Positions 2,836 to 49,770 are shown, counted from the first letter of the stretch. The stretch is 57,866 nt of DNA from Thermoplasmata archaeon (GCA_035632035.1 DASQHP010000037.1:1-57866), one strand, 5' to 3'. Notes: generated by a model not told the origin, from the sequence alone. Translations and numbers: made by a program.

Positions 2836-3086
2836 CGTCACCCCCGCAGGTCGAAGCTGCCCGACTCGCCCCACGACCGGGAGTTGGAGTCCCACGGCCC
2901 CCCCGTCGAGTCTTCGCCTGACCCCGTTCACCGGCCGACGGGAGCTTAATGGCTTGTCCAACCCCCCCCGGGCGGTGGCGTGGCGTGTCACAGCGGCGCA
3001 GCATTCTCGGGTGACCGCTGCTTGTCGACCCGGTTGAACGAGCCTTCTATTAGGCGAGTGCATGCGTCCTGCCGGCGGCCGGTCGG

Positions 3087-28497: not shown

Positions 28498-29328
28498 TCA
28501 CACTGTCCCGGGTCGGTCCCGTCGGCCCGCGAGCCCCTCGGAAAGTCGGGGCTGCAGGCCCGCCGTCGACGGAAGACCCAGGTCGGCCCGCCGGGCGTAG
28601 AGCGCACCCTCCGCGCCGGGAGTCGCCTCCATCGCGAGCTGGGCGGTCGCTCCGTCCACCCCGAGGAGGGCGTGACGGGAGATGATGTGGCCGAACGCCC
28701 AGTGACGGTGGAGAGCGAGGTCCGTGAAGTGCGGGGCGTAGTGGCCTCCGCCGACCCCGACCACGACGCGGTCCTGAGGGTCCGGGCGAATCTCAGGTAG
28801 GACCCGGGCGAGCACGCGGGTGGCGGCTACGGGCGGCGATGGGTCCGCCCCGAACCCGATCTCTGCGAAGAACGACGGAACATGCGAGAGCGGGCCATGG
28901 TGGGTTGCTTCGAACGTGGCCGGTATCCCCGCGTCCTCCCCGCCCTCGTCGAGCCGGCGGAGGGCGTCGGTCATCAGCCGCGGCGCGGCGGGGACAAGAA
29001 AGTGGGCGGCGCCGCCAACCTCGGCGGACGAACCAAAGTTACCCAGGGGGTGGACCGTAAAGCACCGGGTGCCACTCTCGCTTCGATGGATCGACGCATA
29101 GACGACCGCGTTGATCTGATCTGCGACGACCGCCGGCAGCCGTCGCTCAACCCAGTCGTCGTGGATGTGGAGCCGGTCGCGGACCAGGATGAATGGACCG
29201 CCCGCCCACTGCCGCAGCGGTGCGCCGTCCACGGAGTCGCCCGTGGCGGGCACGGACCCCCACTCCTCGAGGACGGCCCGGGCCACGGGGTCGGATCGCG
29301 ACAGCACGATGAGATGGGTCGCGTCCAT
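28498..29328 (-). CDS. dtdA: D-aminoacyl-tRNA deacylase, archaeal DTD2 type
   Basis: 276 aa. Contains FEATHHGP..VPSFFAEIG and GGGHYAP, hallmarks of the DTD2 family. Confidence 0.75.
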   Translation of the reverse strand: MDATHLIVLSRSDPVARAVLEEWGSVPATGDSVDGAPLRQWAGGPFILVRDRLHIHDDWVERRLPAVVADQINAVVYASIHRSESGTRCFTVHPLGNFGSSAEVGGAAHFLVPAAPRLMTDALRRLDEGGEDAGIPATFEATHHGPLSHVPSFFAEIGFGADPSPPVAATRVLARVLPEIRPDPQDRVVVGVGGGHYAPHFTDLALHRHWAFGHIISRHALLGVDGATAQLAMEATPGAEGALYARRADLGLPSTAGLQPRLSEGLAGRRDRPGTV

Positions 29329-33450: not shown

Positions 33451-33551
33451 TGCTCCCGGCGGGAGTTTCCCCGGCGGGGGTACCCCGTCGGTTTTGAACC
33501 CGCGTCAGAGGCTCGAGAGGCCTCTATCCTTGACCACTAGACTACGGGAGC
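33451..33551 (-). tRNA. tRNA-Glu (anticodon CUC) interrupted by a 28-nt intron in the T-loop (position 59/60)
   Basis: Minus strand reads GCTCCCG TA GTCT AGTGGTCAA GGAT A GAGGC CTCTCGA GCCTC TGAC GCGGG TTCAAA [28 nt] T CCCGC CGGGAGC A. After removing the insert, this is a 73-nt cloverleaf with a perfect 7-bp acceptor stem, 5-bp anticodon and T stems, U33, and a T-loop of TTCAAAT. CC follows the discriminator. Confidence 0.8.
33465..33492 (-). other. Predicted tRNA intron (ACCGACGGGGTACCCCCGCCGGGGAAAC) with a bulge-helix-bulge context
   Basis: See the tRNA finding: the hBHBh' structure can be drawn by hand with both predicted cut sites between the 2nd and 3rd nucleotides of 3-nt bulges. Confidence 0.65.
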
Positions 33552-34113: not shown

Positions 34114-37100
34114 TTACGGAGCCGCGGGCGGGCGCCGAAGGGCCCAGAACCCCGTGGCCGTTTCCGTGGTCCGGAGCTGGCTCTGCAGGAGCTGCAGCGC
34201 CTCACGGGCCTTCGCGAGGGCGGTGCCGTAGTCGCTGGCCCGCAGCTGGATCGACTCCTCCAGCAGCGCGCGCGCCGGCGTCGTATCGACCTTGCGCTCC
34301 GTGGCCCGCGCGAGGGCGGCGTCGATGAGGTAGTGGAGATTCATGAGCTCCCGATGAAGGGCCTTTCGGCGGTTGAGCTCCTCCGAGGCGTCCAGAAGCG
34401 CGTGGGCCGCCGGGAGGACCTGGCCCTCGCGGACCAGCTTTGAGACGTTCTCGAGACTGTGGGCGACCGGCTCGACCGAGACGTGGAGCCCCTCCCGCGC
34501 GAAATTCAGCTCGGTGGTGACCTCATCCAGCTTCTCGTCGAGCCGCCCCCGAACGAGGTGGCGCAGCCGCTCGTCCGCCTGCGCGAGCAGGGCATCGACC
34601 GGCTCGAACCGGCTCGCCTGGACAGCGAGACCGGCCTCGCTGAACAGCTCCATCACCGGTGTGGTGTCCAGGCCCAGCTTCTCCCCGACCCACAGTCGGT
34701 CCTTCAGCTCGGCGAGCCGGCTCTGGTACTTTCGTTGCCGGAGTTCCTTGAGACGAGCCTCCTCGGCATCGATGAGGTCGAGCGCGCCCCCGAACTCTCC
34801 CGCTTGGCTCGCCGCGCTCACCCGGGCCGTGAACTGGGTGCGGGCCTCGGCCTCGATCGAAGAGGTCTCTGCGCCCTCCGCGGGCGCGGGCAGGATGGCC
34901 CGCTCGCGGGATTCGATGAAGGCGAGCAGGGCGTCGCGGATCGCCCCGCGCGACTTGGCAAGCGCGTCCTGAGCGCGCGACCAATCGCGAGCCCCGGAGG
35001 CCTCCTCGGCATCGCCGAGGCTGGCTTCCGCGCTCTCGAGTCCCGTCGGAACCCCCCGGGCCTGCGCCAACTCGTAGAGCCGCCGGACGTCGGCGAGAGC
35101 CTCGGAGTACTGCCGTTCGAGCGCCCACCGGGCGGCCTCCGACGACTCCCGGGCGAGTCGAGTGGAATCGCCGTAAGTGCCGGATTGATGGGCGGCGCGA
35201 GCCGCCTCGAGCGCCGGCAGCGCCCGGCTGGTGTCCGCGCCCATCTCCATCGCCTCCTTGACCTGGCGGTCGGCGGCATCCAGCGCCTCCCGGGAGCGTC
35301 GGAACCCGTCGCGCGCCGAGTCGAGCGCCTCCGACAGGTCGATCGCGTGGGAGAGAACGTCACTGTAGGCATGGCTGGATAGGGCGCGGCGAGCTTGCTC
35401 GATCTCCCGGTCGGCCTCGACCGAGCGGACACCTTCTTCCTGGGCGGAGGTGAGCTTGCGTTCCATCGCCTGGATCGACCCTTCGGCGATCCGCAGCTGG
35501 AGCTCCACCCGCTCGAGCTCCCCGCCCGCGAGCGCGGCCTTCTGGAGGGAGTCGAGCGGTCGGCCTTCTTCGAGCGCCGCGCGGGCCTGTCGGAGCAGGT
35601 TCTCCGCGACGGTCGTGTCGCTCCCCTCGTGCCGGGCGCGGGCGATCGTGGCCTGGATCCCGGCCAGCGTCCGTCCGACCTGCTGGGCCGTGGCCTGGAT
35701 CATCTCGCGCTCCAGAGTGGACGCGAGCTCGATCACCTTCGCATACTCCTTCCGCGAGAGGGCTGCCTCGACCACGCTCAGGCGGTCAAGCGGTTCCCGG
35801 ACGTTCACGCGGGCGAGCTCGGCCCCGCTGAGCGCATCCCTCGCCCGGCGGAGCCCGCGCTCGGCGTGCTCGAGGAACCCTCGGGACTCCACGAGCTTAG
35901 AACGGGCCCGCTCAAGGACCTCGGCCACACCGCTCGGGACGGGAAGACCCAGTCGGCGGCGGGCGTCACCCAGGAGCTCGGCCACATCCGGCGCGTCGAC
36001 CCCGGTCGACCTTGCCACTTCGAAGTCCTGCTCGATCGTCCGGAGGTGGTCGGATAGAACGGGACGGAGCAGCTGGATGAGGCCCCCGTGGGCCGAGCGC
36101 GCGAGCGCCTCCGCCTCGGCGAATTTTCCCGCGGCGACGAGGCCGTCCAGCTCGGTGAGCTGCGAACGCACGGTTCCCGTGTCCAGGCCCAGGCGCTCGG
36201 CGTCCTCAGAGAGCAGCTGCGCCTCCGCGGACAGCCGACGGGCCTCCGCCTCCGCTCGGGCCGCGGCGAGCGCCGTCGATAGCGACTCGAGCTGCGCCAG
36301 GGCCCCGTCAAAGTCGAGCGCCTGGTAGGCGATCCGGGTCAGTCGGAGCTGCTCCCGATAGGCGTCCACGGAGATCCCCGACTCCTTGAGCGACTGGAAC
36401 AGGTCGGCGGTCTCGGACATGCCATCGAGGATCCGCTGCGCCGTCGCCTTGGTCCGACCCGCCGCGTCCAGGACCTCCTTGGCGGCCTGGAACGCGTCGG
36501 CGTAGCGACGCTCCCGGGCGGCGGCCTGGGCGGTCTCGAGCCGGGAGCGTAGCGGTCCGGGCTCTAGCCCCATCTTGCCGAGCTCGACCAGCGCGAGCTT
36601 CGCATGGGAGACCGCGTCCTCGCTGCGGACGAGCTGCTGCTGCTGGGCCCGCGTCCGGATCTCCTGGGAGGTACGCGAGGCCTTGACGAAGTCCCCCATG
36701 TTGAAGATCTGCTGGACCTCGTCGATCTGCCGTTGGATCTCGTCACCGGTCCCGCCCATCTCCTCGAGGACCTTGCGCTCCTCCTCGAGCATCTCCACGA
36801 GCGTCGAGGCGTGTGCGGCGAAGACCGCGGAGAACTCCCGCTCCGCGCGGCGGAGGCTATCGATGGAGCCCGGAAGATCCTCCTTCACCCGGAGGTTCAC
36901 ATCCGCGTCGGCGAGGAGCCGGCGGACGGGCGCCACCAGGGATTCGTCCGGGATCTCCTTGAACCCGCTCTCGAGCTCCTCCACCCGGCGCGCGACATAG
37001 GGCCCGGCGGCCGTCCGGAGCGCCACCTCCACCGAGGCAGCCTGCTCGGCGGCCTCGGCGAGCTGGCCGTTCTCGAGGAGCTGGCGAGCCCGGGCAAGCT

Positions 37101-38568
37101 GTGCCTCGGTGTCCGGGGGCAGGAAGCTTCGCTCGCGGGCCATGAGTATGACCCGCTCGAGGGCGGCGAACCGGTCGGAGAAGTAGGCGACGGTCTCCGC
37201 GCCCAGTCGTCGAATCGTCTCCGCGAGGAGCTGGCGGGCCGGCTCGAGCTCGACCCGGTCGAGCATGGAGGCGATCCGGTCCAGCGTCTCGGCGTGGATG
37301 GCGGTGGGGAACCGCGAGGTCGCGAGTCGGCCGAGGAGATCCCGCAGGGAATCTGCTTCGGACCGGGCGCTGTCCAGCTCGGCCGTGAGCTGGGCGACCC
37401 GGTCGGCTGCCTCCTGGCTCGCCGCGAGCGCCTCGCTGTAGATCTTGAGGCGGAGCGCTTCTCGGGCCCGGTTCATCGCGGAGAACACTTCCGTCGCGTC
37501 CCGACCCAGGCGCCGGGCCTCCACGAGCTTCGGCCGGACACTGTCGAGCAGGCTCGCGACGATCCCGACGACCGGCTCCTCCGTCGCCGCTCGGGCGGTC
37601 TGGAGAAGCCTCGGGAGGTCGGCCGGGCCCGCCGTCGGCACCTTGCCCCCGACGTCCTCGACGATCACGAGGCTGGGCGTCGGGTCAACGTCGTACTCCC
37701 GGACCGACTCGAGCGTCCGCCCGAGCGCCTGCACGACCTGGGCGACCTTCTCCCGCAGCGCGTCGGCCAGCTGGCCCGCCTCGCCCTCAATGCCGACCAC
37801 GGTGCGCGGCCAGTCGATGGGGGGGGATTCGGCATCGGCCTGGAGCGCGGTCCCGAGCTGGGTGGTGGGGACTCCCAGGTCCCGGCCTGCGGCGAGGATC
37901 TCGGCCCCCATGCTGCGGGCCGCTTCGCGCCGTTTCGCGCCCTCGGGGACCTCGTCGACCAGCAGGCGATTGATCCGGTCCTGGCCCTCCGCGAGCTTCC
38001 CTTCCGTCACCGGCTCGACGGCGGTCCGGAATAGGCCCTCGAGTTCCGCGAGCCGGCCCGGTGTCTCGCCGGCCCACTCCGCGTAGCCGCGGGCTCGGGT
38101 CCGAAGCTGAGCGGAGAACTCCGCCTGGGCGGAGTGGATCCATTTGTCGAGCTCGGTCAGCCGACCAACCGTCCGGGACCAGTCCTCATCCGTCCCACCG
38201 GGGGCCACGCCCGCGAGGGCCTCGGAAAAGCCGTCGGGAAGCGGAAGGCCGAACTGGACGAGCCGGTCGCCCCGTTCGGCGATCTGCTTACGCTTTCCCT
38301 CGAACGCCGAGCCGGCGTCGGTGACGATCTGCTCGTGGAGCGCCTTCGACTGGGCCTCGACGGCGGGCCAGTCGGAATGCCGGACGAGCTCGAGGATCTG
38401 CGCTTCCTTCTCCCGGGCGCCGGGAAGGACGATCTCGATGGCTTCGAGCTGGCCGATCCGCTCCTGGACTTCGTGGAGCGCGGTCTCCGCGGACTCGCGC
38501 TGCTTCTTCAGCAGCGCGGCCTTCTCCTGGAGGATCTTGGTAAGGCGGGAGGAGGGAACGGTCCCCAA
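34114..38568 (-). CDS. Giant (1484 aa) cytoplasmic all-alpha repeat / coiled-coil protein
   Basis: One uninterrupted ORF with a TTG start at 38568. There is no signal peptide or TM segment. The composition is Ala/Glu/Leu/Arg-rich, with at least 15 copies of a helical-hairpin module (see finding). Confidence 0.7.
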   Translation of the reverse strand: MGTVPSSRLTKILQEKAALLKKQRESAETALHEVQERIGQLEAIEIVLPGAREKEAQILELVRHSDWPAVEAQSKALHEQIVTDAGSAFEGKRKQIAERGDRLVQFGLPLPDGFSEALAGVAPGGTDEDWSRTVGRLTELDKWIHSAQAEFSAQLRTRARGYAEWAGETPGRLAELEGLFRTAVEPVTEGKLAEGQDRINRLLVDEVPEGAKRREAARSMGAEILAAGRDLGVPTTQLGTALQADAESPPIDWPRTVVGIEGEAGQLADALREKVAQVVQALGRTLESVREYDVDPTPSLVIVEDVGGKVPTAGPADLPRLLQTARAATEEPVVGIVASLLDSVRPKLVEARRLGRDATEVFSAMNRAREALRLKIYSEALAASQEAADRVAQLTAELDSARSEADSLRDLLGRLATSRFPTAIHAETLDRIASMLDRVELEPARQLLAETIRRLGAETVAYFSDRFAALERVILMARERSFLPPDTEAQLARARQLLENGQLAEAAEQAASVEVALRTAAGPYVARRVEELESGFKEIPDESLVAPVRRLLADADVNLRVKEDLPGSIDSLRRAEREFSAVFAAHASTLVEMLEEERKVLEEMGGTGDEIQRQIDEVQQIFNMGDFVKASRTSQEIRTRAQQQQLVRSEDAVSHAKLALVELGKMGLEPGPLRSRLETAQAAARERRYADAFQAAKEVLDAAGRTKATAQRILDGMSETADLFQSLKESGISVDAYREQLRLTRIAYQALDFDGALAQLESLSTALAAARAEAEARRLSAEAQLLSEDAERLGLDTGTVRSQLTELDGLVAAGKFAEAEALARSAHGGLIQLLRPVLSDHLRTIEQDFEVARSTGVDAPDVAELLGDARRRLGLPVPSGVAEVLERARSKLVESRGFLEHAERGLRRARDALSGAELARVNVREPLDRLSVVEAALSRKEYAKVIELASTLEREMIQATAQQVGRTLAGIQATIARARHEGSDTTVAENLLRQARAALEEGRPLDSLQKAALAGGELERVELQLRIAEGSIQAMERKLTSAQEEGVRSVEADREIEQARRALSSHAYSDVLSHAIDLSEALDSARDGFRRSREALDAADRQVKEAMEMGADTSRALPALEAARAAHQSGTYGDSTRLARESSEAARWALERQYSEALADVRRLYELAQARGVPTGLESAEASLGDAEEASGARDWSRAQDALAKSRGAIRDALLAFIESRERAILPAPAEGAETSSIEAEARTQFTARVSAASQAGEFGGALDLIDAEEARLKELRQRKYQSRLAELKDRLWVGEKLGLDTTPVMELFSEAGLAVQASRFEPVDALLAQADERLRHLVRGRLDEKLDEVTTELNFAREGLHVSVEPVAHSLENVSKLVREGQVLPAAHALLDASEELNRRKALHRELMNLHYLIDAALARATERKVDTTPARALLEESIQLRASDYGTALAKAREALQLLQSQLRTTETATGFWALRRPPAAP

Positions 38569-38723
38569 TCCGCCTGGTCCGGCCGTGGGTCTTGCCTCCT
38601 CCCTTTAGGGAACTGGCCCCAGCAACCGAATGGAGGGGGCTCCAAGGCGATTCATGCGAGCCCATCGATATAAAGCGTCGGCCCCGAGGACGGGCTGCCG
38701 CCGCCGGTCCGTGGGTCGCCCGC

Positions 38724-39110
38724 TTATGGCCGGGTGATGCGACGCTTGCCCATCGCATCGATGTACTGGATCTCGGTGCCCGGCTGGAGCTGCCCCTTCA
38801 GGTCCGCGTCGAGGGGGAGGCTGAAGGTTTCGTAGCTTTCCATGTCCATGAGCTGGACCTCCGCGTCCGAGAGCGACAGGACCTGCGCCTGCTTCTTCCC
38901 GATCATCGGGATCTGGACCTTGTGCTTCACGGGGAAGACCACCGACCGCTTGGACCCGTCGAACACGCCCACCGCGTCGATGCGGGCCTTCGCCTCGCCG
39001 TGCTTCCCGGGTTTGGAAGTCTGGATGCTGATGATCCGGCAGGGCTCGTCGTCGATGATCATGTACCGGCCCTCCTTGAGCTCCCGGACCTCCGCCTGCG
39101 TCCACGCCAT
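38724..39110 (-). CDS. eif5a: Translation initiation factor 5A (aIF5A)
   Basis: 128 aa. Contains the hypusination loop [14 protein letters not shown] and OB-fold C-terminal domain strings. Confidence 0.9.
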
Positions 39111-39248
39111 TCTCGCGACCTTCGCTGAGGGCGGGGGACGCGGCCCGTGACTTAACCGTTACCCCGGACGGCGACCGTCGGGCGGCGGCCCTGCGGGCCG
39201 CCAACGTCCGATCAGGGACCGGGGTCGACTGAGTCCGACGCGGGACCA

Positions 39249-41281: not shown

Positions 41282-41353
41282 GTTCGCAAGGGTTTATGCC
41301 GTCGCATCGCTCTAAACGACTCCCGAAACGCGGGTCAGAGAGGGGACCCCTTC

Positions 41354-44300
41354 ATGCTACGATCGATCGGCCCGTTTGACGCCCGGTCGATCGAAGAGTC
41401 GACGCGCCGTTACTGGTCCTCCCGATCCCTTCCCGCCCCTTCGGGGGGCCTGGGGCCACCGTCGGGGGGCCGGACCCACCAATTGTTCGGGACGGTGACG
41501 AGCGAGGAGACCTTCCTCGCCCTCGTCCATCGTGCTGTACTGGCCGACGCCGACGCTCGATACCTGGCCCAGGCCGGCCGCCGGACCTCAGGCCGCATCC
41601 TGGTCCGGGCGCACGGACCCTCTGGGGAGGTCGAGTCCGCGGCGGAAGTGCTCCGTCGCCTCGGCGTCTGGCTCGGAGGGGGCCAGCCCGAGAAGTTGGC
41701 GCCGGATCCCCACGTCGACCGAATCCAGGCAATGGTGGACCGGCTGGCCGCGGCCAATCTTCTCGTGAGCCGGGAAGCGCCGATCCGAAGCTGCCCCGTG
41801 TGCCGAACGCCTCGCACTCCAGCGGGGATCGTCTACGAGGAAGCGCGCGCCCCGGCGTACCTCGTGCGCTTTCCCCTGCGAGAGACCACCCCACGCGTGA
41901 GCCTTCTCGTCTGGGTGGATTCTCTTTGGAAGCTCCTCGGAACCACCGCCCTCGTCGTGAACCCGACACTGTCCTACGTGACGGCCCGGTTCCGCCGTCA
42001 CGGCGAGGAGGAGCTCATCCTCCTCTCCCGCTCCGCGATGGCGCGACTGGCCGAATGGATCCCCGGCGCCGAGCTCGAGGTACTCTCGGAGAGCCCGGGC
42101 GCTTCCCTCGAAGGACGGCGGTACGACCATCCGCTCTCGCACGAGGCGCCGGGCCTCGGCGCCATCGAGGGGGCGGCGGGGGCCATCCACGCTTCGGCCG
42201 AGGTGACGGACAGTGGCACGGGGATCGTGACGCTCGTACCCAGCCACGGCGCCGGCGACGCCGCCGTGGGAATCGCCCTGGGCGTCGCGGGATGGCCCGT
42301 CCTCGATTCCGACCTCACGCTCTCGACGGGTTTCTCGCACAAGTACCAGGGGCTCGCCATCGATGCCGGCGAGGCGTTCATCCAGCGAGATGTCTCCGAC
42401 AGCGGCTACCTGTTCGCGCAGTTGACCGTGCGCCGCGGCGTTCCCCACTGCGCGGTCTGCGGCGAGGGGCTCGTCTGGGAGACGGGTCGGACCTGGTGCC
42501 TGGAGCCCGGACGGCTGTCCGCGGACCGGCTCGACCTGCTCGGACGCCTGCTTCCACAGGAATCACTCCCACCGGCCGAAGAGACCGTACCCTGGCCCGT
42601 GACCGAGCGCGACACCACCGAGGATGACTCGGCGCCCCTCCTGTTGGATTGCCCATCGTGCGGACGACTCTCTCCGGCCTCGGCGCGCGCGGCCTGCCCG
42701 TGCGGGGGGACCCGTCAACCCGTGCGTCGTCACCTGCTGCCGGTCTTCCTGGAGACGCTGGTCGCCTGGGCCCGTGAGACCCCGTTCCCGGCGGGTGAAG
42801 CCCTCCGGCTCTATGTCGCGGACCGCCGGCGGATCCCGGCGGTGATCCACCACCTGGTGGCGATGGAAGGGGCGGATGCCCACCCGGGCGAGGTTCGCTT
42901 GGCGATCTTTCCGACGCTGCCGACGGGCAACCCACGCGGCTTCGAGATCGGGGCCGACGAGCCGGTCGACGCCGTCCGCGCAACGCTCGTGGGTCTGCGG
43001 GGCGCGCCACGGGCTGGACTCGTCTCCCTCGCCGACCGGCGCGTCGCCGAGGACCGTCGACTCCGGAAGCTCTGGGCCACCGTCCAGGACGCGATTCTCG
43101 CGATGTCCCGGGATGGCTACTCCATCGGAGCCACGCCCATCGGGGCGAGACTGAGCGAGCTCCGGGAGGAGGACCGGGCGTTCCTGTCGACGTTCGAGCG
43201 GATGCGCCTCGAGGTCCTCCGCGAGTACGAACTCGGTCACCTGGCCATCGTACAGGCCCGGCTCGCGCGGTTCCTCGAGGACGACCTGCGGGACGGGTTC
43301 CTACCGCTCATCCGCAGGCGGCTGGATTCCGCGGGCCTCCCGCCGGAAAAGTCCGCGGCCTACGCCGTGCTCGCCCACGTGCTTCCGCTCTGGGCGGAGC
43401 TCTACGCGCCCATCGCGCCCTTCACGTGCGAGGCGATCGGCCGGCTGTTCCGCGGCGAGGGAGAGAGTCTCTTCGAACGGCCCTTTACACCCATCCTGCA
43501 AACCGTGCTGGACCCCAACGCCGAGCGGGCGTACCGTCGGTGGCGCTCGGTCAGCCAGAGCCTGGTCCGAGCGCGTCGGCACCTTCGCCTCCCCGCCGCC
43601 ACCCCCCTGGAGCGGGTGGTCCTCTTCGTTCGCGAAGAGGAAGCCGCGGACGAGCTGCGGGCGGCCTCCGAGATCCTCGCCCGGATCACGAACGTCCAAT
43701 CCCTCGAGGTCGCATCTCCCAACCTTCCGTGGGAAGGAAAGCGCGTCCAGGCAGTCCCTGTGCTTTCGGCGATCCAGAAAGTGTTCGCGACGGGTACGCC
43801 TCGAGTGGTGCGCCTTCTGAGCGGTCTCCCCGGGCGCCGCGTCCAGGAAGGGATCCGGTCCCACTCCCTCCAGGTGGCGGTGGAGGGGCGCCCGGTCGAG
43901 ATCATCAGTTCGATGGTGGAGTTCGTCGAGACCCTCCCCGAGGGGGTCGTCCCGATCCCGTGGGAGCTCGGCGAGCTCTACATCCAGGTCCCGCTCGGGG
44001 CCCGTGCGGGCGGGGAGGGCGACGCACCCCCGCTCACTCCGGATGGGTTCCGCCTCCTGCGGCGAGTGCGTCGTCGGCTTCGGACGGCCCTCGCGATCCA
44101 GTCGATTCCCGGCATCGTCGTGTTCGCCCAAGGTCGGCTGGCGGAGGAGGTCGACCGCCAGCAAACGGCCCTGACGCGGTACCTGGGGGTCCCGCGTCTC
44201 AAGATCGTCGCTTCCTCGGAAGGCTTTCCTCGGGACGAGGTGGTGGTGGGCCGCAGCGGCCGGGGCGACCGCTGGTCCGTCTGGGTACCCGGTGTGAAGG

Positions 44301-46102
44301 TGGTCGCCACCCGCCGCAAGGAGCGCGCCGCCCTGCCGGAGAGCCGGGTCCCGCGGAGGTTGGGAGACGAGCGCGCCTCCGTCGACCTCCTCGCCGGACC
44401 CGCCGTGGAGCGCGAGAACCAGCTCCAGGATTGGGTCAACCGTCTCGACATCCAGCTCGGGCGCCCGATCATGGGGGTTTCGAAGCTCCGCTACGCGTGG
44501 GAGATGGGGATCCACTCGTACGACGACCTGGTCCACGCCCCGTTCGAGCAGCTGAGTCAGATACCGGGGTTCGGTCCGATCGTCGCCGCCGAGATCGTTC
44601 GGACGTCGGGCGGGGTCGTTCCCACCCTCCGCGTCGCGCGCCCAGAGTTCCGGTACGCCTCCCTGCCTCGCCCGGCCGTGCCGGACCTGGTCGTGCCCTC
44701 CCCCGCGGCCCCCGAGTCGACGGCAGCGGCCCCGCCTTCGGCCCTTCTGCGAGTTCCGTCCGCCGAGCCCGAGGAGGTTCTTCCGGCGATCCCCACCCCG
44801 GTTCCTCCATCCCTCGGCCCGGCTCCGCCGACCCCCGAAGTGCCCTCTTCCGCATCGCTCGGAGAAGCCACGCCCTCGACGACCGAAGTCGTTCCGCCCG
44901 TGGAATCCGATTCTGAAATCAGCATGAGTCCGCTGGCACCCGAGCTGGCTACGGCGGAGACCCCGGTCGCCGAGGAACCGGTCTCTGGAGATTCGACCCC
45001 CGTATCAACCGAATCACTTACTCCCTCGGAGCTCCCCATCGAACCCCTGGCGGAGCCGCCACCGGCGAACTCCGCACCGCCGCCGGAACCCGGCCCGGTC
45101 GCTGATGCCGGGGCGCCGCCGGTTCTCGAGGAATCCGGCCCGTCGGCGTCCCCGGAGGTCCCGCAGCCTGACAACGAGCCGCTCCGAGGCGATTCCGCAC
45201 CTCCCGAACCGGTCTTTCGCGCGGAAGAACCTCTCGTCGGATCGGTCGACCTCGAACCCCAACCCAGCCCGTCTGCCGGGGCCGTCGCGAGGGAATCGGC
45301 GCCGCCGCCCGCCGAGGCATTCCCGCTTCCCGGTGCGAACGAGCCATCCGAACCGTCGGGGACGGTGGGGTCGCCCGAGCCAACGACGGAGGACATTCAA
45401 TCTGTTGCGGCCGCGATGGTGACATCGGGCGCTCCGGAAGTCGGCGCGAGCGCTCCTTCCCAACCCGAGCCTAGCCCGGTCGAGCCCGCCCTGGACGTGG
45501 CCGGCTCCACTTCCCCCAGCGACTCGATCTCCCCGGACGGCGCCGGACTCGCCGACCTCGCCGCCTCGAGCATCGGCGAGCGAGCAAAAAGCGGAGTCGC
45601 GCCTACGTCCCCAGAACCCGTCGCGCCAGCGGCCATCGTGCCACCTCCGCCCCCGGAGCCGCGGCGAACGGGGACGTTCATCTCGTCCGAGACGGTCTCG
45701 GGTCCGACGTGGGCGACATTCCTGGATGCCACCGCCGCGGGGCATCGGGGACTCTGCCTAAGCCGCGAGTTCCCCGATCGGCTTCGAGCACTGATCGGCC
45801 CCCGGGACGTCACGATCATCTGGCTCTCCAACGCGGGCCGTCCCGGATCGGCGCGTCCGGGGGACCTCGATGCTCTCGGGGCCCTAGTCGAAAAAATGGT
45901 CACCCAAGAGGGCGTGACGGCGGTCTACATCGACAGCGTGGAGTTCCTGATCCGGGTCAACTCACTCGACCGTGTGCTCGAGCTTCTGCAGCGCCTCCAT
46001 CAGCAGGCGCTCGCCCACAACGCGCGGGTCTGGGTGCCGGTGAACCCGCTCCTCGCGAGCTCGGCCGACGCGGAAAAGCTGGTCACCGCGTTCGCCGATT
46101 GA
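41354..46102 (+). CDS. Isoleucyl-tRNA-synthetase-like scaffold with degenerate catalytic and editing motifs, fused to HhH, a long disordered linker and a C-terminal DUF835-like domain
   Basis: 1582-aa ORF. The first ~1000 aa appear colinear with class-Ia IleRS by eye. Matching landmarks include the zinc knuckle SCPVCRTP..IVYEE, the CP1 strings LLVWVDSLWKLLGTTALVVNPTLSY and GTGIVTLVPSHGAGDAAVG, and the anticodon-domain strings DRAFLSTFERMRLEV...LAHVLPLWAELYAPIAPFTCEAIGRLF. An HhH motif QLSQIPGFGPIVAAEIV lies at about 44560-44610. The C-terminus is HRGLCLSREFPDRLR...VTIIWLSN...VYIDSVEFLIRVNSLDRVLELLQRLHQQALAHNARVWVPVNP. Confidence 0.7.
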   Translation: MLRSIGPFDARSIEESTRRYWSSRSLPAPSGGLGPPSGGRTHQLFGTVTSEETFLALVHRAVLADADARYLAQAGRRTSGRILVRAHGPSGEVESAAEVLRRLGVWLGGGQPEKLAPDPHVDRIQAMVDRLAAANLLVSREAPIRSCPVCRTPRTPAGIVYEEARAPAYLVRFPLRETTPRVSLLVWVDSLWKLLGTTALVVNPTLSYVTARFRRHGEEELILLSRSAMARLAEWIPGAELEVLSESPGASLEGRRYDHPLSHEAPGLGAIEGAAGAIHASAEVTDSGTGIVTLVPSHGAGDAAVGIALGVAGWPVLDSDLTLSTGFSHKYQGLAIDAGEAFIQRDVSDSGYLFAQLTVRRGVPHCAVCGEGLVWETGRTWCLEPGRLSADRLDLLGRLLPQESLPPAEETVPWPVTERDTTEDDSAPLLLDCPSCGRLSPASARAACPCGGTRQPVRRHLLPVFLETLVAWARETPFPAGEALRLYVADRRRIPAVIHHLVAMEGADAHPGEVRLAIFPTLPTGNPRGFEIGADEPVDAVRATLVGLRGAPRAGLVSLADRRVAEDRRLRKLWATVQDAILAMSRDGYSIGATPIGARLSELREEDRAFLSTFERMRLEVLREYELGHLAIVQARLARFLEDDLRDGFLPLIRRRLDSAGLPPEKSAAYAVLAHVLPLWAELYAPIAPFTCEAIGRLFRGEGESLFERPFTPILQTVLDPNAERAYRRWRSVSQSLVRARRHLRLPAATPLERVVLFVREEEAADELRAASEILARITNVQSLEVASPNLPWEGKRVQAVPVLSAIQKVFATGTPRVVRLLSGLPGRRVQEGIRSHSLQVAVEGRPVEIISSMVEFVETLPEGVVPIPWELGELYIQVPLGARAGGEGDAPPLTPDGFRLLRRVRRRLRTALAIQSIPGIVVFAQGRLAEEVDRQQTALTRYLGVPRLKIVASSEGFPRDEVVVGRSGRGDRWSVWVPGVKVVATRRKERAALPESRVPRRLGDERASVDLLAGPAVERENQLQDWVNRLDIQLGRPIMGVSKLRYAWEMGIHSYDDLVHAPFEQLSQIPGFGPIVAAEIVRTSGGVVPTLRVARPEFRYASLPRPAVPDLVVPSPAAPESTAAAPPSALLRVPSAEPEEVLPAIPTPVPPSLGPAPPTPEVPSSASLGEATPSTTEVVPPVESDSEISMSPLAPELATAETPVAEEPVSGDSTPVSTESLTPSELPIEPLAEPPPANSAPPPEPGPVADAGAPPVLEESGPSASPEVPQPDNEPLRGDSAPPEPVFRAEEPLVGSVDLEPQPSPSAGAVARESAPPPAEAFPLPGANEPSEPSGTVGSPEPTTEDIQSVAAAMVTSGAPEVGASAPSQPEPSPVEPALDVAGSTSPSDSISPDGAGLADLAASSIGERAKSGVAPTSPEPVAPAAIVPPPPPEPRRTGTFISSETVSGPTWATFLDATAAGHRGLCLSREFPDRLRALIGPRDVTIIWLSNAGRPGSARPGDLDALGALVEKMVTQEGVTAVYIDSVEFLIRVNSLDRVLELLQRLHQQALAHNARVWVPVNPLLASSADAEKLVTAFAD

Positions 46103-46192: not shown

Positions 46193-49100
46193 TCAACGGG
46201 TCCGGCGCGTCGGGATCGAAGGCTCCGTTCCACGCGAGTCGTCTCTCCGCCCCCGGCGGGCCACGAGGAGGCCCGCGGCCGCGATCGCGACGGCGGCACC
46301 GCCGGCCAGCAGCCATTCCCAATCCGGTGTCGAAGCGGAGGGGCTCGCAGAGGTGATCTGGACGACCACGGAGGAGTTCGAGCCCAGACCGTCGGTGTCG
46401 ACCACCGTGATCGAGAGTCGGTAAGATCCCGGTTGGCTGGGCAGGCATTCGAAGCTAAGATTCCCGTTCGTCGGTGCCTGACAACCCGGGGGCAGTCCGG
46501 CGAATTGGGAACGGTACGGGGCGACCCCCCCGGCGACCGAGGCGCTGAGCGAAATCGGAGTGCCGAGCACCGCGGACGTGGGAGTTGAACTGAGAGTCAC
46601 GATGGGGTCGCTCACAACCTCCACCGACCCGGACCACGTCGCGGAGATCCCCAGCGTGTCGGTCGCCGACACCGAGAGCAAATTGGCTCCGACCGTCACC
46701 CCGCGGCAGTAGGCTGCCCCGGGAGCGACCACGGCGCATCCGAGCGGCATCTGCACGAAGTCGACGGAGAGGGTGCCGTCCCCGCCCGACCCGCTCGCAT
46801 TGACCCAGAAGGGGAGGCCGACGTCGCGCGGTCCTGCGGGAGCTACCTGGACCATCACCGAGGGAAACGGGAAGGCGCGGAGAGTCAGGCTCGTGTTCGC
46901 CCGACCCTGGAACTGGTCTATGACCGTGACGGAAACCGAAGTGTTCCCCGCCGTCGGCACGGCTACCGAGACGTTCGCCCCCGGGGCCGCCCCAGTCGGG
47001 AGGTCCCACTGGAAGGTGTACGGGGGCGTCCCCGGGGCCGTCAGCATCGCGTCCAGCGAAACCGTTTCGGGTGCGTCCACGACGGGAGTGGTTGTCCGTA
47101 TCTGCACCGCGAGTGGGGGGCCTACGGTGAGGGAAACCGCCGTCGTTCCGGCCTGGCCGCTCGAGTCGGTCACGTTCGCGACGATGCGGTAGGACCCCTG
47201 GGCTCCGGGGGAGCACGTGAGGACTGTGGAGTTCACAGACGGGCAGCCGGGCGGGAGGCCGGAGTACACAACGGAGTACGGGAGTCGGCCGCCCGTGACG
47301 TTCAATCGAAGAACGGTCGATGTCCCGAGGTCGAGTTCGCCCGGCGATGCCGTGATCCCACCCACGTCGAGCGAGGGGACAGGCGGCGTCGTGGTGACGT
47401 TCACGGGAGCGCAGGCGTTGTGCCAGTGCAGGTTCCATGCCTCCAGGCAGAACGAGTACGCCGTCTGGGGAAGTAGGCCACCCACGGTCTCGGAGCGATT
47501 CTGGCCCCACAGGTCGACGACGTTGGTGAAGGGTCCTCCGGCGACCCCCCAGAAGAGCGTGTAGTTGACTACCCGGTTCGCGTCCGAGGCCGGCACGATC
47601 CAAGAGAGAGCCACGGTGGTGTCGTTCGGGCGCACGGTGAGAATGACCGGGCTAGGGGGAAGGGTCTCCGCACCGGCGAGACCGGTCGGGAACGGGAACT
47701 CCGGCAGGCCCGACTTCCAGGACCACCAGATGGTTCCCGCTACCGTACCCCCGGCGGTCCCCCGGATCGGACACGTCGTCCCATTGTGTCGACAGTTCAC
47801 CGACTCGGAAATGATCGAGTAACTGGTGTTCGAGAAGAGCCCCTCGACGGCCGCGGGGTTCTGGGACGACTCTCGCAATGTGCTTCCATACCCCGGGAGG
47901 TCGTAAGTGAGGTTCGACTCGAGAAACCGGCCCGAGCTCGGCTCAAAGAGCCAGGAGTTGTTGTCGAAGAGTCCGTTCCAGATCCCATTGAACATCGGCC
48001 CATCGGACACGACCGTGGGGCGGTGCTCGGACGACCAGGTGTTCGGCGGGACCGAGTCGTCCGGCCAGTGCCCGAACGTTTGGTCTGCGTAGGTGAGGTA
48101 GGAGCCGGTCAATTGCCCCGAGCGGTCGAGATTGAACCGCTGCGTCAGCACCGGCCCGCCGCCCATCAGCTCGGAGACTACGAGGGTGTGGGCGGTCACG
48201 TTCGTGTACATTCCGTTCACGCCGTTCACCGTGAACTGACTCGCGAAGGTGGTGGTGTACACGGGAACGAGGCGGGTCCCCGGAGCGGGTCCCTCGAGAC
48301 GGAGCTGCTGGATGTGGTCCCCGGAACTTCCGTCGGCCTCGATGTTGAAGAACGAGTTGTACTGCGGGATCCAGTAGTTGTTGTTCGCCTCGAAGTAGGA
48401 GAGCGTTCCTAGGTTCCACTCCGTGTTGTTCCAGAGATTGTAGCCGACGAGGCTGGAGCCGTCCCCCATGAGAACGGCGACGGAGGAGTTCCCGTCCTCG
48501 CCGATGAGATTGAGCTGCGTGTTGGACGTCAGCGCGCTGATCGGGACCGAGAGAAACGTGTGGTTGAACGTCCGCCCCGTCGTCGTGTTGATCGCGAACA
48601 GGCTCGGGTGAGTCGCCGAGGAGCAATCCGACGAGCACCCGAACTCGTAGACGTACGACCCGTCCTCCGTGATCCAGTCGGTGTTCTCGATCCCCTGGTA
48701 GTCCATCAGATCGTCGTAGAGGTACCGCCAGTAGCCCACGTCTTGGACGGTCTGGTTGGAGAACCAAAAGTGGACCAGGCGCCCGGTCGCGTTCACGTAG
48801 TAGACCCCATCGTCCGTCCACGACAGCAGGGGACACTGCGTCCCGTAGACACCGCTCCCGCACGGACCCTGGGCGTTGCAGTTCGACGCGTATCGGGAGA
48901 GATTGTTCCAGTCCGGAAGGACGAACGTCGCGTTACCGAACGTGATCCACGGGTAGCCGAGGAGGTTCACCGTGAGATCCGACGACGTGACGGTCACCGC
49001 GGACCAGTCGCCGCCCCACGAGGTGGTGTTGTTGGCGTAGACGAAGTAGTACCCCGGGGGAACGAGCACGGAGTAGAACCCGCTCGAATTGGTCGTGTTC

Positions 49101-49462
49101 GCGGCGACGTAGGGGCACGTGGCGACCGAAGCGATCCCGCTGCAAGGTCGTCCCACCACGGTGACGGCGACGCCCGCAACCGGCCCGCGGGCCGCCGAGG
49201 CGGCCGTCACCGTCCCGTTGATCCAGTACGAGCTCCCGCTGTAGGGTACCTCTCGCGTCGACGGTCCGTGGCCCGTCGGGCCGAACAGGAGAGGGACGGG
49301 ACGAGGGGACGTCGCGAAAGGGTTTCCGGCAACGAGCGAGCCCGTCGCCAGAGGACAACCGCTCAGGAAGAGCCCGACGCCCACCGCGACGAGGATCGAT
49401 ACCCTCGTCCCCCGGAAGATCCGCGGCCTCGCTCGCGTCACAGCAGGAAAACGCGAGACCAT
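46193..49462 (-). CDS. Large cell-surface (S-layer/adhesin-like) glycoprotein candidate: unknown N-terminal domain, FN3, PKD array, C-terminal TM anchor
   Basis: ORF 46193..49705, trimmed to ATG at 49462 (MVSRFPAVTRARPRIFRGTRVSILVAVGVGLFLSGC, signal/lipobox-like). There are dozens of N-x-S/T sequons. An FN3-like string is VALSWIVPASDANRVVNYTLFWG...TAYSFCLEAWN. At least 4 PKD-like repeats (GG.LPY...Y.GLPPGC.S.N...L.C.P...G.Y.I) are present. The C-terminus has TM segment WLLAGGAAVAIAAAGLLVA followed by RRGRRDD. Confidence 0.65.
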   Translation of the reverse strand: MVSRFPAVTRARPRIFRGTRVSILVAVGVGLFLSGCPLATGSLVAGNPFATSPRPVPLLFGPTGHGPSTREVPYSGSSYWINGTVTAASAARGPVAGVAVTVVGRPCSGIASVATCPYVAANTTNSSGFYSVLVPPGYYFVYANNTTSWGGDWSAVTVTSSDLTVNLLGYPWITFGNATFVLPDWNNLSRYASNCNAQGPCGSGVYGTQCPLLSWTDDGVYYVNATGRLVHFWFSNQTVQDVGYWRYLYDDLMDYQGIENTDWITEDGSYVYEFGCSSDCSSATHPSLFAINTTTGRTFNHTFLSVPISALTSNTQLNLIGEDGNSSVAVLMGDGSSLVGYNLWNNTEWNLGTLSYFEANNNYWIPQYNSFFNIEADGSSGDHIQQLRLEGPAPGTRLVPVYTTTFASQFTVNGVNGMYTNVTAHTLVVSELMGGGPVLTQRFNLDRSGQLTGSYLTYADQTFGHWPDDSVPPNTWSSEHRPTVVSDGPMFNGIWNGLFDNNSWLFEPSSGRFLESNLTYDLPGYGSTLRESSQNPAAVEGLFSNTSYSIISESVNCRHNGTTCPIRGTAGGTVAGTIWWSWKSGLPEFPFPTGLAGAETLPPSPVILTVRPNDTTVALSWIVPASDANRVVNYTLFWGVAGGPFTNVVDLWGQNRSETVGGLLPQTAYSFCLEAWNLHWHNACAPVNVTTTPPVPSLDVGGITASPGELDLGTSTVLRLNVTGGRLPYSVVYSGLPPGCPSVNSTVLTCSPGAQGSYRIVANVTDSSGQAGTTAVSLTVGPPLAVQIRTTTPVVDAPETVSLDAMLTAPGTPPYTFQWDLPTGAAPGANVSVAVPTAGNTSVSVTVIDQFQGRANTSLTLRAFPFPSVMVQVAPAGPRDVGLPFWVNASGSGGDGTLSVDFVQMPLGCAVVAPGAAYCRGVTVGANLLSVSATDTLGISATWSGSVEVVSDPIVTLSSTPTSAVLGTPISLSASVAGGVAPYRSQFAGLPPGCQAPTNGNLSFECLPSQPGSYRLSITVVDTDGLGSNSSVVVQITSASPSASTPDWEWLLAGGAAVAIAAAGLLVARRGRRDDSRGTEPSIPTRRTR

Positions 49463-49770
49463 CCAAGAGCGGCACTTCAACGTTCGGTTTCGGATTATCC
49501 GGCTCGCGCGGCCTCCGAGGGTCCGTCGAGTCTTCTCCCAGCGGGAACGCACCCGCTCTCGTCTGGACGAGACCCACGGGCACGCGGAATCTCTCCCCCC
49601 TGGCGGGGCCGATGATCGCTCAGGCTGTCCGATACCCCCCCGTTTGGCGCTAGAACGTTTAACATTTGGTCGGTGAAAGGGATGGATGAACCTCGTCCGA
49701 TTCATCTATCGGCCACCTGAGCGTGAGCATGTGTCCGCCGGACGCCACCAAAACGAAACTCTCACACAAT

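Follow-up and report, generated by a model that had tools for sequence, protein, structure and literature searches.

A degenerate isoleucyl-tRNA synthetase paralogue with a helix-hairpin-helix and an inactivated KaiC-like domain, conserved in acid-soil Thermoplasmata

Because non-catalytic paralogues derived from aminoacyl-tRNA synthetases (aaRS) are well known, the gene considered here overturns no established concept. It lies at positions 41354..46102 (+) of a 57,866-nucleotide (nt) stretch of DNA from a Thermoplasmata archaeon (GCA_035632035.1 DASQHP010000037.1:1-57866), referred to below, at its full length, as the window, and it is almost certainly a degenerate, selected paralogue of an isoleucyl-tRNA synthetase (IleRS) fused to a helix-hairpin-helix (HhH) domain, a linker and DUF835, an inactivated KaiC-like (iKaiC) domain. 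Its interest lies in the depth of its conservation, its rewired editing domain and its linkage to aIF5A.

The nearest described analogue is LeuRS-I of the Sulfolobaceae, a non-aminoacylating class Ia duplicate that has a disrupted CP1 and an acidic C-terminus and matters for growth (PMC9437257). Like the window protein, LeuRS-I is an archaeal full-length class Ia duplicate with an altered CP1; unlike it, LeuRS-I still makes leucyl-adenylate and binds tRNA-Leu, whereas the window protein is derived from IleRS, has lost the adenylation motifs and carries HhH and iKaiC domains. HisZ, the HisRS-like domain of GCN2 and PoxA/EpmA resemble it as well, in being reused aaRS paralogues without tRNA charging. 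Gcn2 is switched on when uncharged tRNA binds to its HisRS-related domain (PMC4335047), and PoxA acts as a modifier of EF-P, the homologue of e/aIF5A in bacteria (PMC9437257). These proteins, which serve in regulation (HisZ, GCN2) or act on the EF-P/IF5A family (PoxA), belong to class II and have other partners; none is IleRS-derived and none has a KaiC-like domain, and the functional parallel with the window protein is one that we infer by analogy. For IleRS itself, a 2022 review of aaRS duplications gives only IleRS2 and SbzA, the latter an IleRS homologue that transfers isoleucine from Ile-tRNA-Ile to a metabolite (PMC9437257).

On the side of the tail, DUF835 has been described as 'iKaiC', an inactivated KaiC-like ATPase domain found as the output module of response regulators in archaea (PMC5847659). 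REC-DUF835 and PAS-DUF835 proteins share with the window protein the Pfam family, a KaiC/FlaH-like fold without a P-loop and the C-terminal position of the domain; the window protein differs from them in the IleRS-derived scaffold at its N-terminus and in having no two-component genes nearby.

The open reading frame (ORF) is as the original prediction, made from the sequence alone, had described it: it starts with ATG, encodes 1582 amino acids (aa) and sits in a window of ~70% G+C. Its features, with the kind of evidence in brackets, are as follows:

41354..46102 (+): complete gene for a putatively non-aminoacylating IleRS paralogue with HhH, linker and DUF835 (ORF, relatives, purifying selection)
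41354..41713 (+): Rossmann-fold N-terminal half, aa 1-120, without HIGH and WDCHG (alignment, confident predicted fold)
41714..42553 (+): CP1 editing-like domain, aa 121-400, with a rewired pocket and the first zinc knuckle, C147/C150/C366/C369
42554..43033 (+): CP2 with the second zinc knuckle, C433/C436/C448/C450, and Rossmann C-terminal half, aa 401-560
43034..43723 (+): helical anticodon-binding domain, aa 561-790 (Pfam Anticodon_1, E 8e-12)
43724..44443 (+): C-terminal IleRS2-type, DUF5915-like domain, aa 791-1030 (Foldseek, family profile)
44444..44638 (+): HhH domain, aa 1031-1095, with the PGFG hairpin at 1071-1074 (family profile, structure model)
44639..45688 (+): disordered acidic Pro/Ser/Ala/Glu linker, aa 1096-1445 (composition, no column conservation)
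45689..46099 (+): DUF835, an iKaiC domain, aa 1446-1582 (Pfam, structure model, Foldseek)

Synthetase scaffold, lost motifs and the fused parent enzyme

Residues 1-1030 of the window protein are predicted to form a complete type-2 class Ia IleRS fold. An AlphaFold2 (AF2) model of aa 1-1099, built from a 50-sequence alignment, reached a mean predicted local distance difference test (pLDDT) of 89.3 and a predicted template modelling score (pTM) of 0.79. Its best Foldseek matches in the PDB were the type-2 IleRS structures 8c8v/8c9d from Priestia megaterium (E 2e-50; ~1110 columns at 16-17% identity, C-terminal tRNA-binding domain included), among them an entry in which that domain is fully resolved; yeast IleRS-tRNA complexes, 1ile, ValRS and LeuRS followed at lower rank. 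The family profile also matched IleRS (E 1e-49), covering residues 601-929 of 8c9d. The model and its structural neighbours thus bear out the earlier view that the first ~1000 aa are colinear with a complete class Ia IleRS. Compared with type-2 IleRS (8c8v/8c9d; yeast 8wnd/8z1p), the window protein has a like fold over ~1100 residues, with both zinc knuckles (the Cys quartets of which are conserved in the family), CP1 and the C-terminal domain; it differs in its low identity (14-17%), its missing catalytic motifs, its replaced editing residues and ~550 extra residues made up of HhH, linker and DUF835.

Profile searches with the single sequence, which had been proposed together with the original prediction, matched Anticodon_1 (aa 607-754, E 8e-12) and DUF835, left HHH_5 below threshold and gave no match to the Pfam model tRNA-synt_1 at E <= 1. 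The NCBIfam ileS equivalog TIGR00392 scored 115.9 bits, below its cut-off of 621.4. In a phmmer search of PDB sequences, Thermus IleRS 1ile matched at CP1 (aa 120-384, E 5e-21), and the anticodon-binding domain gave weaker matches.

The catalytic motifs were audited in a MAFFT alignment of 103 full-length relatives and nine genuine IleRS controls, in which HIGH falls at T47-V58 of the window protein and KMSKS at R528-E531. HIGH, WDCHG, GxDQxRGWF and KMSKS are replaced or deleted in 103/103 relatives, with variable residues at those positions within the family, and the GxDQxRGWF segment is physically deleted in every one of them; HIGH, KMSKS, WDCHG and DQxRGWF are intact in all nine controls, as they are in the active fusions described below. 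The losses called earlier (HIGH, KMSKS, WTTTPWT and GTG.VH.AP.HG) are correct in this alignment, and WDCHG and GxDQxRGWF, both likewise missing from the window protein, can be added to them. Judged by its motifs, the window protein appears to have no aminoacylation site.

A homology search returned ~110 clusters of 1300-1880 aa with Anticodon_1 and DUF835 at E < 1e-150, followed by a gap and then by real IleRS at E ~1e-18. The same architecture is found in ~110 full-length relatives from independent assemblies. At least 118 GTDB species genomes encode a relative (one genome per species was scanned), and the best 80 of them are all 'Thermoplasmata archaeon' metagenome-assembled genomes (MAGs), including Candidatus Lutacidiplasma silvani AcS3-62, UBA184 and UBA61. 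Lutacidiplasmatales, or TMEG, is an order from acidic soils with ~69% G+C and genomes of ~2.1 Mb, in the description of which synthetases are not discussed (PMC9287336). Across this whole order of acid-soil archaea the gene is kept intact under purifying selection.

An exhaustive search with DUF835 alone gave 854 matches, the window family included, in which the domain is attached elsewhere to TPR and to beta-helix/fn3 sensor-like modules. It also recovered long proteins with strong tRNA-synt_1 and Anticodon_1 matches, DUF5915, HHH_5, zinc ribbons and DUF835. A search with the protein P0223 then returned at least 118 clusters (P0256-P0373) of 1320-1500 aa with IleRS, DUF5915, HHH_5 and DUF835, which, where named, are called 'isoleucine--tRNA ligase' and come from Thermoplasmata, Methanomassiliicoccales and Methanobacteriota MAGs. 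Their HIGH is of the SIH[LMI]GT type, as in bacterial controls, and their KMSKS loop reads [APR]MSKS or QMHKS; WTTTPWT is present in 111/118 and DQTRGWF in 114/118, and the STG.VH.APGHG..D pattern was matched in 51/118. These active-looking fusions have the domain order of the window protein (IleRS2 core, Anticodon_1, DUF5915-type domain, HHH_5, variable linker, DUF835), the same DUF835 motifs and the same clade relative to plain IleRS. They differ from it in their intact-looking catalytic and editing motifs, their strong tRNA-synt_1 matches, the zinc ribbons that many of them carry in the linker and their position next to FEN1 rather than aIF5A (three loci examined).

The loss is graded. The paralogues P0193, P0222, P0242 and P0244 keep tRNA-synt_1 scores of 296-359 bits, and in these four and P0243 HIGH and/or KMSKS is mutated; P0181, P0226 and P0228 have 61-84 bits left, and the window family has nothing, so that the series ends, at its most degenerate, with the window protein. 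P0244 retains WTTTPWT while HIGH and KMSKS are lost, which suggests that the synthetic site is lost before CP1. P0244 (2329 aa), P0242, P0243, P0193 and P0222 also have extra TPR and zinc-ribbon modules and very long charged linkers. In a neighbour-joining (NJ) tree, every DUF835-bearing IleRS-like protein falls in one clade apart from plain IleRS, with the window family on the longest branches.

Since active-looking enzymes bear the same tail, the tail predates the loss of catalysis, and the window protein is a degenerate paralogue of the fused enzyme: an enzyme copy put to new use, and not a newly made fusion. The original prediction had proposed that a pseudo-synthetase was 'recruited' to give a DUF835 protein its sensing or targeting module; its catalysis-dead full-length IleRS scaffold with HhH, linker and DUF835 stands, whereas the novel recruitment is not supported, at least 118 active-looking clusters having the same tail. 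Nor is an aaRS-DUF835 fusion unprecedented, given those clusters, although it is true that no link of IleRS with DUF835 or KaiC-like domains was found in the searchable literature, the coverage of which does not extend to the primary description of iKaiC. Arguably of wider bearing is that the apparently housekeeping IleRS of many Thermoplasmatota is fused to a nucleic-acid-binding HhH domain and an inactivated KaiC-like one: a core enzyme of translation is thereby connected with the KaiC-like family, a proposed archaeal signalling hub, and the dead copy offers a natural separation-of-function variant for studying the roles of the tail and CP1 apart from aminoacylation.

Editing domain, selection and tail

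Editing residues are given in E. coli-type numbering (T242, T246, N250, H333, D342). The WTTTPWT position corresponds to W187-V188-D189-S190-L191-W192-K193 of the window protein. T242 has become Asp (D189) and T246 Lys/Arg (residue 193) in 103/103 relatives, the T241-T243 segment reads V/T-D-x in the family, N250 is T/A and H333 is P/A/T (Thr293 in the window protein). With these replacements, the hydrolytic editing residues (the Thr-rich peptide, His333 and Asn250) are gone from the family. The site has nevertheless not simply decayed. Kept in 103/103 relatives are W245 (W192), G328/G330, P336, H338 (H298), G339 (G299) and D342 (D302), the last of which is known as the IleRS residue that anchors the amino group of the misactivated amino acid; W240 is kept in 102/103 and the threonine of GTG, T329 (T289), in 100/103. 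The GTG.VH.AP.HG..D string as a whole spans G288...D302 in the window protein.

Domain-wise invariants were compared between 60 family members and 60 active fused IleRS, and the ratio of nonsynonymous to synonymous substitution rates (dN/dS) was calculated by the Nei-Gojobori method as a median over six independent pairs:

Rossmann-N: 4/120 positions invariant in the family; 19% of active-IleRS invariants retained; dN/dS 0.20
CP1: 62/280 invariant; 37% retained; dN/dS 0.09
CP2/Rossmann-C: 22/160 invariant; 22% retained; dN/dS 0.22
Anticodon-binding domain: 18/230 invariant; 21% retained; dN/dS 0.17
C-terminal domain: 15/240 invariant; 27% retained; dN/dS 0.18
HhH: 11/65 invariant; retained share not meaningful (3 positions); dN/dS 0.25
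Linker: dN/dS 0.39
DUF835: dN/dS 0.09

All domains of the gene are under purifying selection, and all 51 usable closed ORFs of the family are at least 1250 aa long (median 1620). CP1 is the most constrained folded domain: 31 of its 62 invariant positions differ from the active-enzyme consensus (e.g., D189, R140, R145, R154, R231, H329, K330 and R379), and K/R193, H298, D302 and H329-K330-Y331 are also among the invariants. The concentration of constraint in CP1 and the tail, together with the few invariants of the anticodon domain, places the functional centre of the protein in a redesigned CP1 plus tail. In the C-terminal domain, a family-specific basic insertion, GRSGRGDRW (aa 966-974, 44249-44275; family form GR[ST]RRG.RW), has a G966/R967/G971 pattern missing from the active enzymes; it is predicted by AF2 to be a beta-hairpin, after which comes a low-confidence stretch of ~35 aa ahead of the HhH.

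The HhH domain recognized in the original prediction is weak in the single sequence (HHH_5 at aa 1051-1082, E 0.007, 17.2 bits against a cut-off of 27) and becomes significant with the family profile, which matches Pol X (E 1e-4), Hel308 (E 3e-4) and the N-terminal domain of Rad51. Its helices at 1042-1084 were modelled by AF2 with a pLDDT of ~90, and HHH_5 is precomputed for many relatives. The same profile matches the N-terminal HhH-bearing part of archaeal eL32 (9l94_Q, E 3e-9; Haloarcula 1s72_Y, E 1.5e-7), a better match than those to the DNA-repair HhH proteins. As for the linker (aa 1096-1445), its composition agrees with the ~350-aa Pro/Ser/Glu/Ala low-complexity region noticed earlier: it is 23% Pro, with a net charge of -40 and an isoelectric point of 4.05, and it varies across the family from 95 to 639 aa with no column conservation.

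The terminal domain is DUF835, as the original prediction had it: Pfam PF05763 matches aa 1460-1570 (E 1e-15) at 58.1 bits, above the gathering cut-off of 33.1. An AF2 model of the C-terminal 180 aa (pLDDT 90) found FlaH 4yds (E 4e-5) and KaiC CI/CII (E 2e-4 to 1e-3) in Foldseek, with a TM-score of ~0.5 when normalised to the query. The domain has no Walker A motif GxxxxGK[ST], the equivalent segment reading GHRGLCLSREFPDR, and the family consensus at the P-loop site is G..G.C..R..P, with no GK[ST]; the model is thus that of a KaiC/FlaH-like fold without a P-loop. The motifs G..G.C..R..P, WL[ST]N.GR..RP.DL and [DE]G.EYL are common to degenerate and active fusions, so the tail likely does the same thing in both.

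The aIF5A locus and the search for a housekeeping ileS

Three further features of the window belong to the locus of the gene:

38724..39110 (-): aIF5A gene, 128 aa, the conserved divergent neighbour (Pfam IF5A-like_N, E 7e-16, and eIF-5a)
34114..38568 (-): all-helical orphan of 1484 aa, third member of the triad, downstream of aIF5A (conserved locus position)
41288..41300 (+): promoter-like element AAGGGTTTATGCC, a purine-rich stretch resembling a B recognition element plus a TATA-like TTTAT, 54-66 nt upstream of the ATG

On five long contigs the gene stands head-to-head with aIF5A, followed by a protein of 1450-1500 aa without a Pfam domain, and the other flanks differ. Over 86 loci, aIF5A is immediately upstream and divergent in 78 and the helical orphan is present in 77. 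Seven of the eight loci without aIF5A have <600 nt upstream and the eighth is L007, so that the head-to-head arrangement holds in 78/79 testable loci, usually with a spacing of 150-180 nt. Nearly all of the 75 upstream regions aligned, that of the window among them, have a motif (A/G)GGGTTTAT[TG]C ~50-65 nt before the start codon; from its position and conservation we infer a promoter element, and the gene thus keeps a promoter-like element of its own.

The helical orphan has no match in Pfam and no sequence match in the PDB. It shares 47% identity over 1467 aa, with 3 gap positions, with its orthologue at the most distant locus, and it shows recurring 'AR.AL..G.Y..A' helical repeats. Fully degenerate paralogues of low G+C (P0226 and P0375, in loci of 38-39% G+C) also have aIF5A close by, at distances of 1 kb and 4.5 kb; no large helical protein is encoded in these two loci (L090 and L091), which belong to other Thermoplasmatota lineages. 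In both loci (L090 10001-15328, L091 5062-14023) an M3 peptidase flanks aIF5A, which in L091 overlaps with the beginning of a gene of the arginase family (agmatinase type). In Methanomassiliicoccales-type genomes the active fused ileS has another context, FEN1 -> ileS -> NUDIX/AcnX ... S27e/S24e/Spt4/RpoE (L087-L089), and this synteny rules out positional orthology between it and the window gene.

No other ileS was found among the window ORFs scanned, and a composition screen found no high-GC type among the best 118 active fusions. One plain IleRS of high G+C (P0114) lies on an 8-kb contig beside GlgC-like and ADP-ribosylglycohydrolase genes. A metagenome scan with a high-GC back-translation of DMHGLPIEV gave 120 loci (L093-L212) in two groups. 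Group A consists of plain IleRS reading PPYTSGQMHLGT...RKMSKS without a tail, presumably of haloarchaeal kind by their look, and Group B of active-looking fused IleRS-DUF835 reading PPYTTGSIHLGQ...RQMHKS at 65-70% G+C (e.g., L126, on a 323-kb contig); the occurrence of DMHGLPIEV in both means that the peptide is not exclusive to the fused clade. No flanking genes were common to the high-GC loci and Lutacidiplasmatales DNA. The tetranucleotide correlation (r) of the high-GC loci was 0.89-0.963 against >=0.965 for the controls, a comparison biased by positive controls that all came from the same genomic region. Because IleRS is an essential enzyme and the synteny of the active ileS differs, an active IleRS is expected to be co-resident in these genomes.

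Proposed role and remaining neighbours

On balance, we lean towards the view that the gene product is a paralogue, maintained by selection and no longer aminoacylating, of the fused IleRS-HhH-iKaiC enzyme widespread in Thermoplasmatota, and that it acts through CP1 as a translation-linked subunit, the biochemical part of this proposal being much less certain than the descriptive part. The protein would no longer charge tRNA. Its remodelled CP1 pocket, in which the amine-anchoring Asp302 and the Trp192 platform are kept with a new invariant Asp and Lys/Arg alongside, might serve as a binding site for a ligand or for the 3' end of an RNA or tRNA, on which it could possibly even carry out a new reaction. 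RecA/KaiC-fold domains usually mediate oligomerisation or docking, and the iKaiC domain, on its acidic flexible linker, may do likewise; the HhH-linker-iKaiC module would then tether the protein to the same partner or oligomer that is contacted by the tail of the housekeeping IleRS. The role would be that of a regulatory or quality-control subunit linked to translation and co-expressed with aIF5A. Several points weigh against this proposal. No separate housekeeping ileS of a Lutacidiplasmatales genome came to light in the window, the fusion clusters or the metagenome loci. NJ is a distance method, so long-branch attraction may affect the tree and the timing of the duplication is uncertain. Inherited synteny or the sharing of a promoter region might by itself explain the head-to-head arrangement with aIF5A. 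Finally, the 62 invariant CP1 positions, His, Lys and Asp among them, would be equally compatible with a new enzymatic activity, and the term 'non-catalytic' would then not apply to this domain.

That last possibility can be made specific: CP1 may have become a trans-acting deacylase or an aminoacyl-tRNA-dependent transferase for which the dead core is a tRNA-docking scaffold. The dN/dS of 0.09 with 62 invariant positions, the retained amine-anchoring Asp and aromatic platform of the editing pocket, the paralogue P0244 with its dead synthetic site and surviving WTTTPWT, and the precedent of SbzA (PMC9437257) all speak for such an enzyme. We nevertheless hold it to be unlikely, since the canonical hydrolytic residues (the Thr-rich peptide, His333 and Asn250) are all replaced, none of the window ORFs scanned points to a pathway for a candidate substrate, and the weak conservation of the anticodon domain speaks against specific tRNA docking. 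The same domain bears on a GCN2-like arrangement, in which charged or uncharged tRNA-Ile is sensed by the pseudo-synthetase and the signal passes by way of DUF835 to a KaiC-type hub. Only 21% of the active-IleRS invariants of the anticodon domain survive and few family-specific invariants are found there; moreover, the tail is also present on the active enzyme and was therefore not acquired to make a sensor, and a KaiC-like ATPase, of which there is none among the window ORFs scanned, is not a conserved neighbour, occurring near L004 and L087 only. A sensor is accordingly improbable, even though the full tRNA-binding architecture is there in a confidently predicted fold that includes the anticodon-binding and IleRS2 C-terminal domains, DUF835 sits C-terminally, where transmitter domains sit in REC-DUF835 and PAS-DUF835 proteins, and is borne elsewhere by TPR and beta-helix/fn3 sensor-like modules, and the HisRS-related domain of Gcn2 sets a precedent (PMC4335047).

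The locus itself raises the thought that the protein serves aIF5A as a dedicated partner, perhaps together with the 1484-aa helical protein, in a way comparable to the LysRS paralogue PoxA/EpmA on EF-P. The IleRS paralogue, aIF5A and the helical protein would then make up a lineage-specific translation-control module, in which the former tRNA-binding scaffold or the editing pocket might recognise the tRNA-shaped aIF5A or its (deoxy)hypusine side chain; the iKaiC tail would couple this module to the oligomer with which the housekeeping IleRS is also in contact, and the system would be an archaeal class I analogue of PoxA/EpmA-EF-P. The head-to-head arrangement persists in 78/79 testable loci while the other flanks vary, the degenerate low-GC paralogues lie within 1-4.5 kb of aIF5A and the active ileS fusion is not near it, the pocket has two invariant acidic residues (D189 and D302), and PoxA-EF-P provides a precedent (PMC9437257). 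Divergent adjacency is, however, weaker evidence than operon membership, and PoxA keeps an active adenylation site whereas the window protein has none; we regard a dedicated partnership as quite improbable, and the module built on it as an equally long shot. There is hardly any room left for an ordinary housekeeping IleRS whose motifs have diverged and whose C-terminus has been extended, for a pseudogene in decay or for a chimeric assembly. For the housekeeping enzyme it can be said that no other ileS was seen in the window or found for the order; against it stand the 115.9 bits with TIGR00392 where 621.4 are required, the absent tRNA-synt_1 match and the four missing catalytic signatures, and a mis-registered alignment is ruled out by comparison with the nine control IleRS and 114 active fusions. 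A pseudogene does not agree with intact ORFs and dN/dS of 0.09-0.25 in the folded domains. A chimera at ~44.5 kb is ruled out by the same architecture in ~110 independent clusters and at least 118 genomes.

Immediately upstream of the gene, the window differs from most loci. The original prediction had placed the gene behind a secreted-protein operon at a distance of 72 nt; the gap to the upstream ORF is real, but the operon context is incidental, the ancestral neighbour being the divergent aIF5A and the gene having a promoter-like motif of its own. The segment 39267-41281 (+) is a lineage-specific insertion of 2 kb, which puts 2.2 kb between aIF5A and the gene and is found in only 2-3 other loci of the 86, with two paralogous secreted-looking ORFs and one membrane ORF, all without Pfam matches. 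The two paralogues have an N-terminal hydrophobic anchor, common Cys motifs and a C-terminal C.S...CP. A 178-aa ORF at 38592-39128 (+) was ruled out as a gene of the secreted-protein operon; it is the antisense shadow of aIF5A.

The rest of the window is ordinary chromosome, with a shikimate-pathway operon, a tRNA-splicing endonuclease, M16 and M1 peptidases, DTD2, an Obg-like GTPase and Trm56. DTD2 (D-aminoacyl-tRNA deacylase, PF04414) lies at 28498-29328 (-) and recurs a few kb beyond the helical orphan in L002, L004 and L005, so that the synteny extends further in some lineages; two M16 peptidase genes precede it in the window, L002 and L005. Convergent with the IleRS paralogue across a 90-nt gap is a 1170-aa PKD/fn3 surface-type protein at 46193-49705 (-); a second PKD protein is encoded at 343-3063 (-), and L004 likewise has one beside the locus. 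A single RNA gene was detected in the window, tRNA-Glu(CUC) at 33477-33551 (-), just past the 3' end of the helical orphan.

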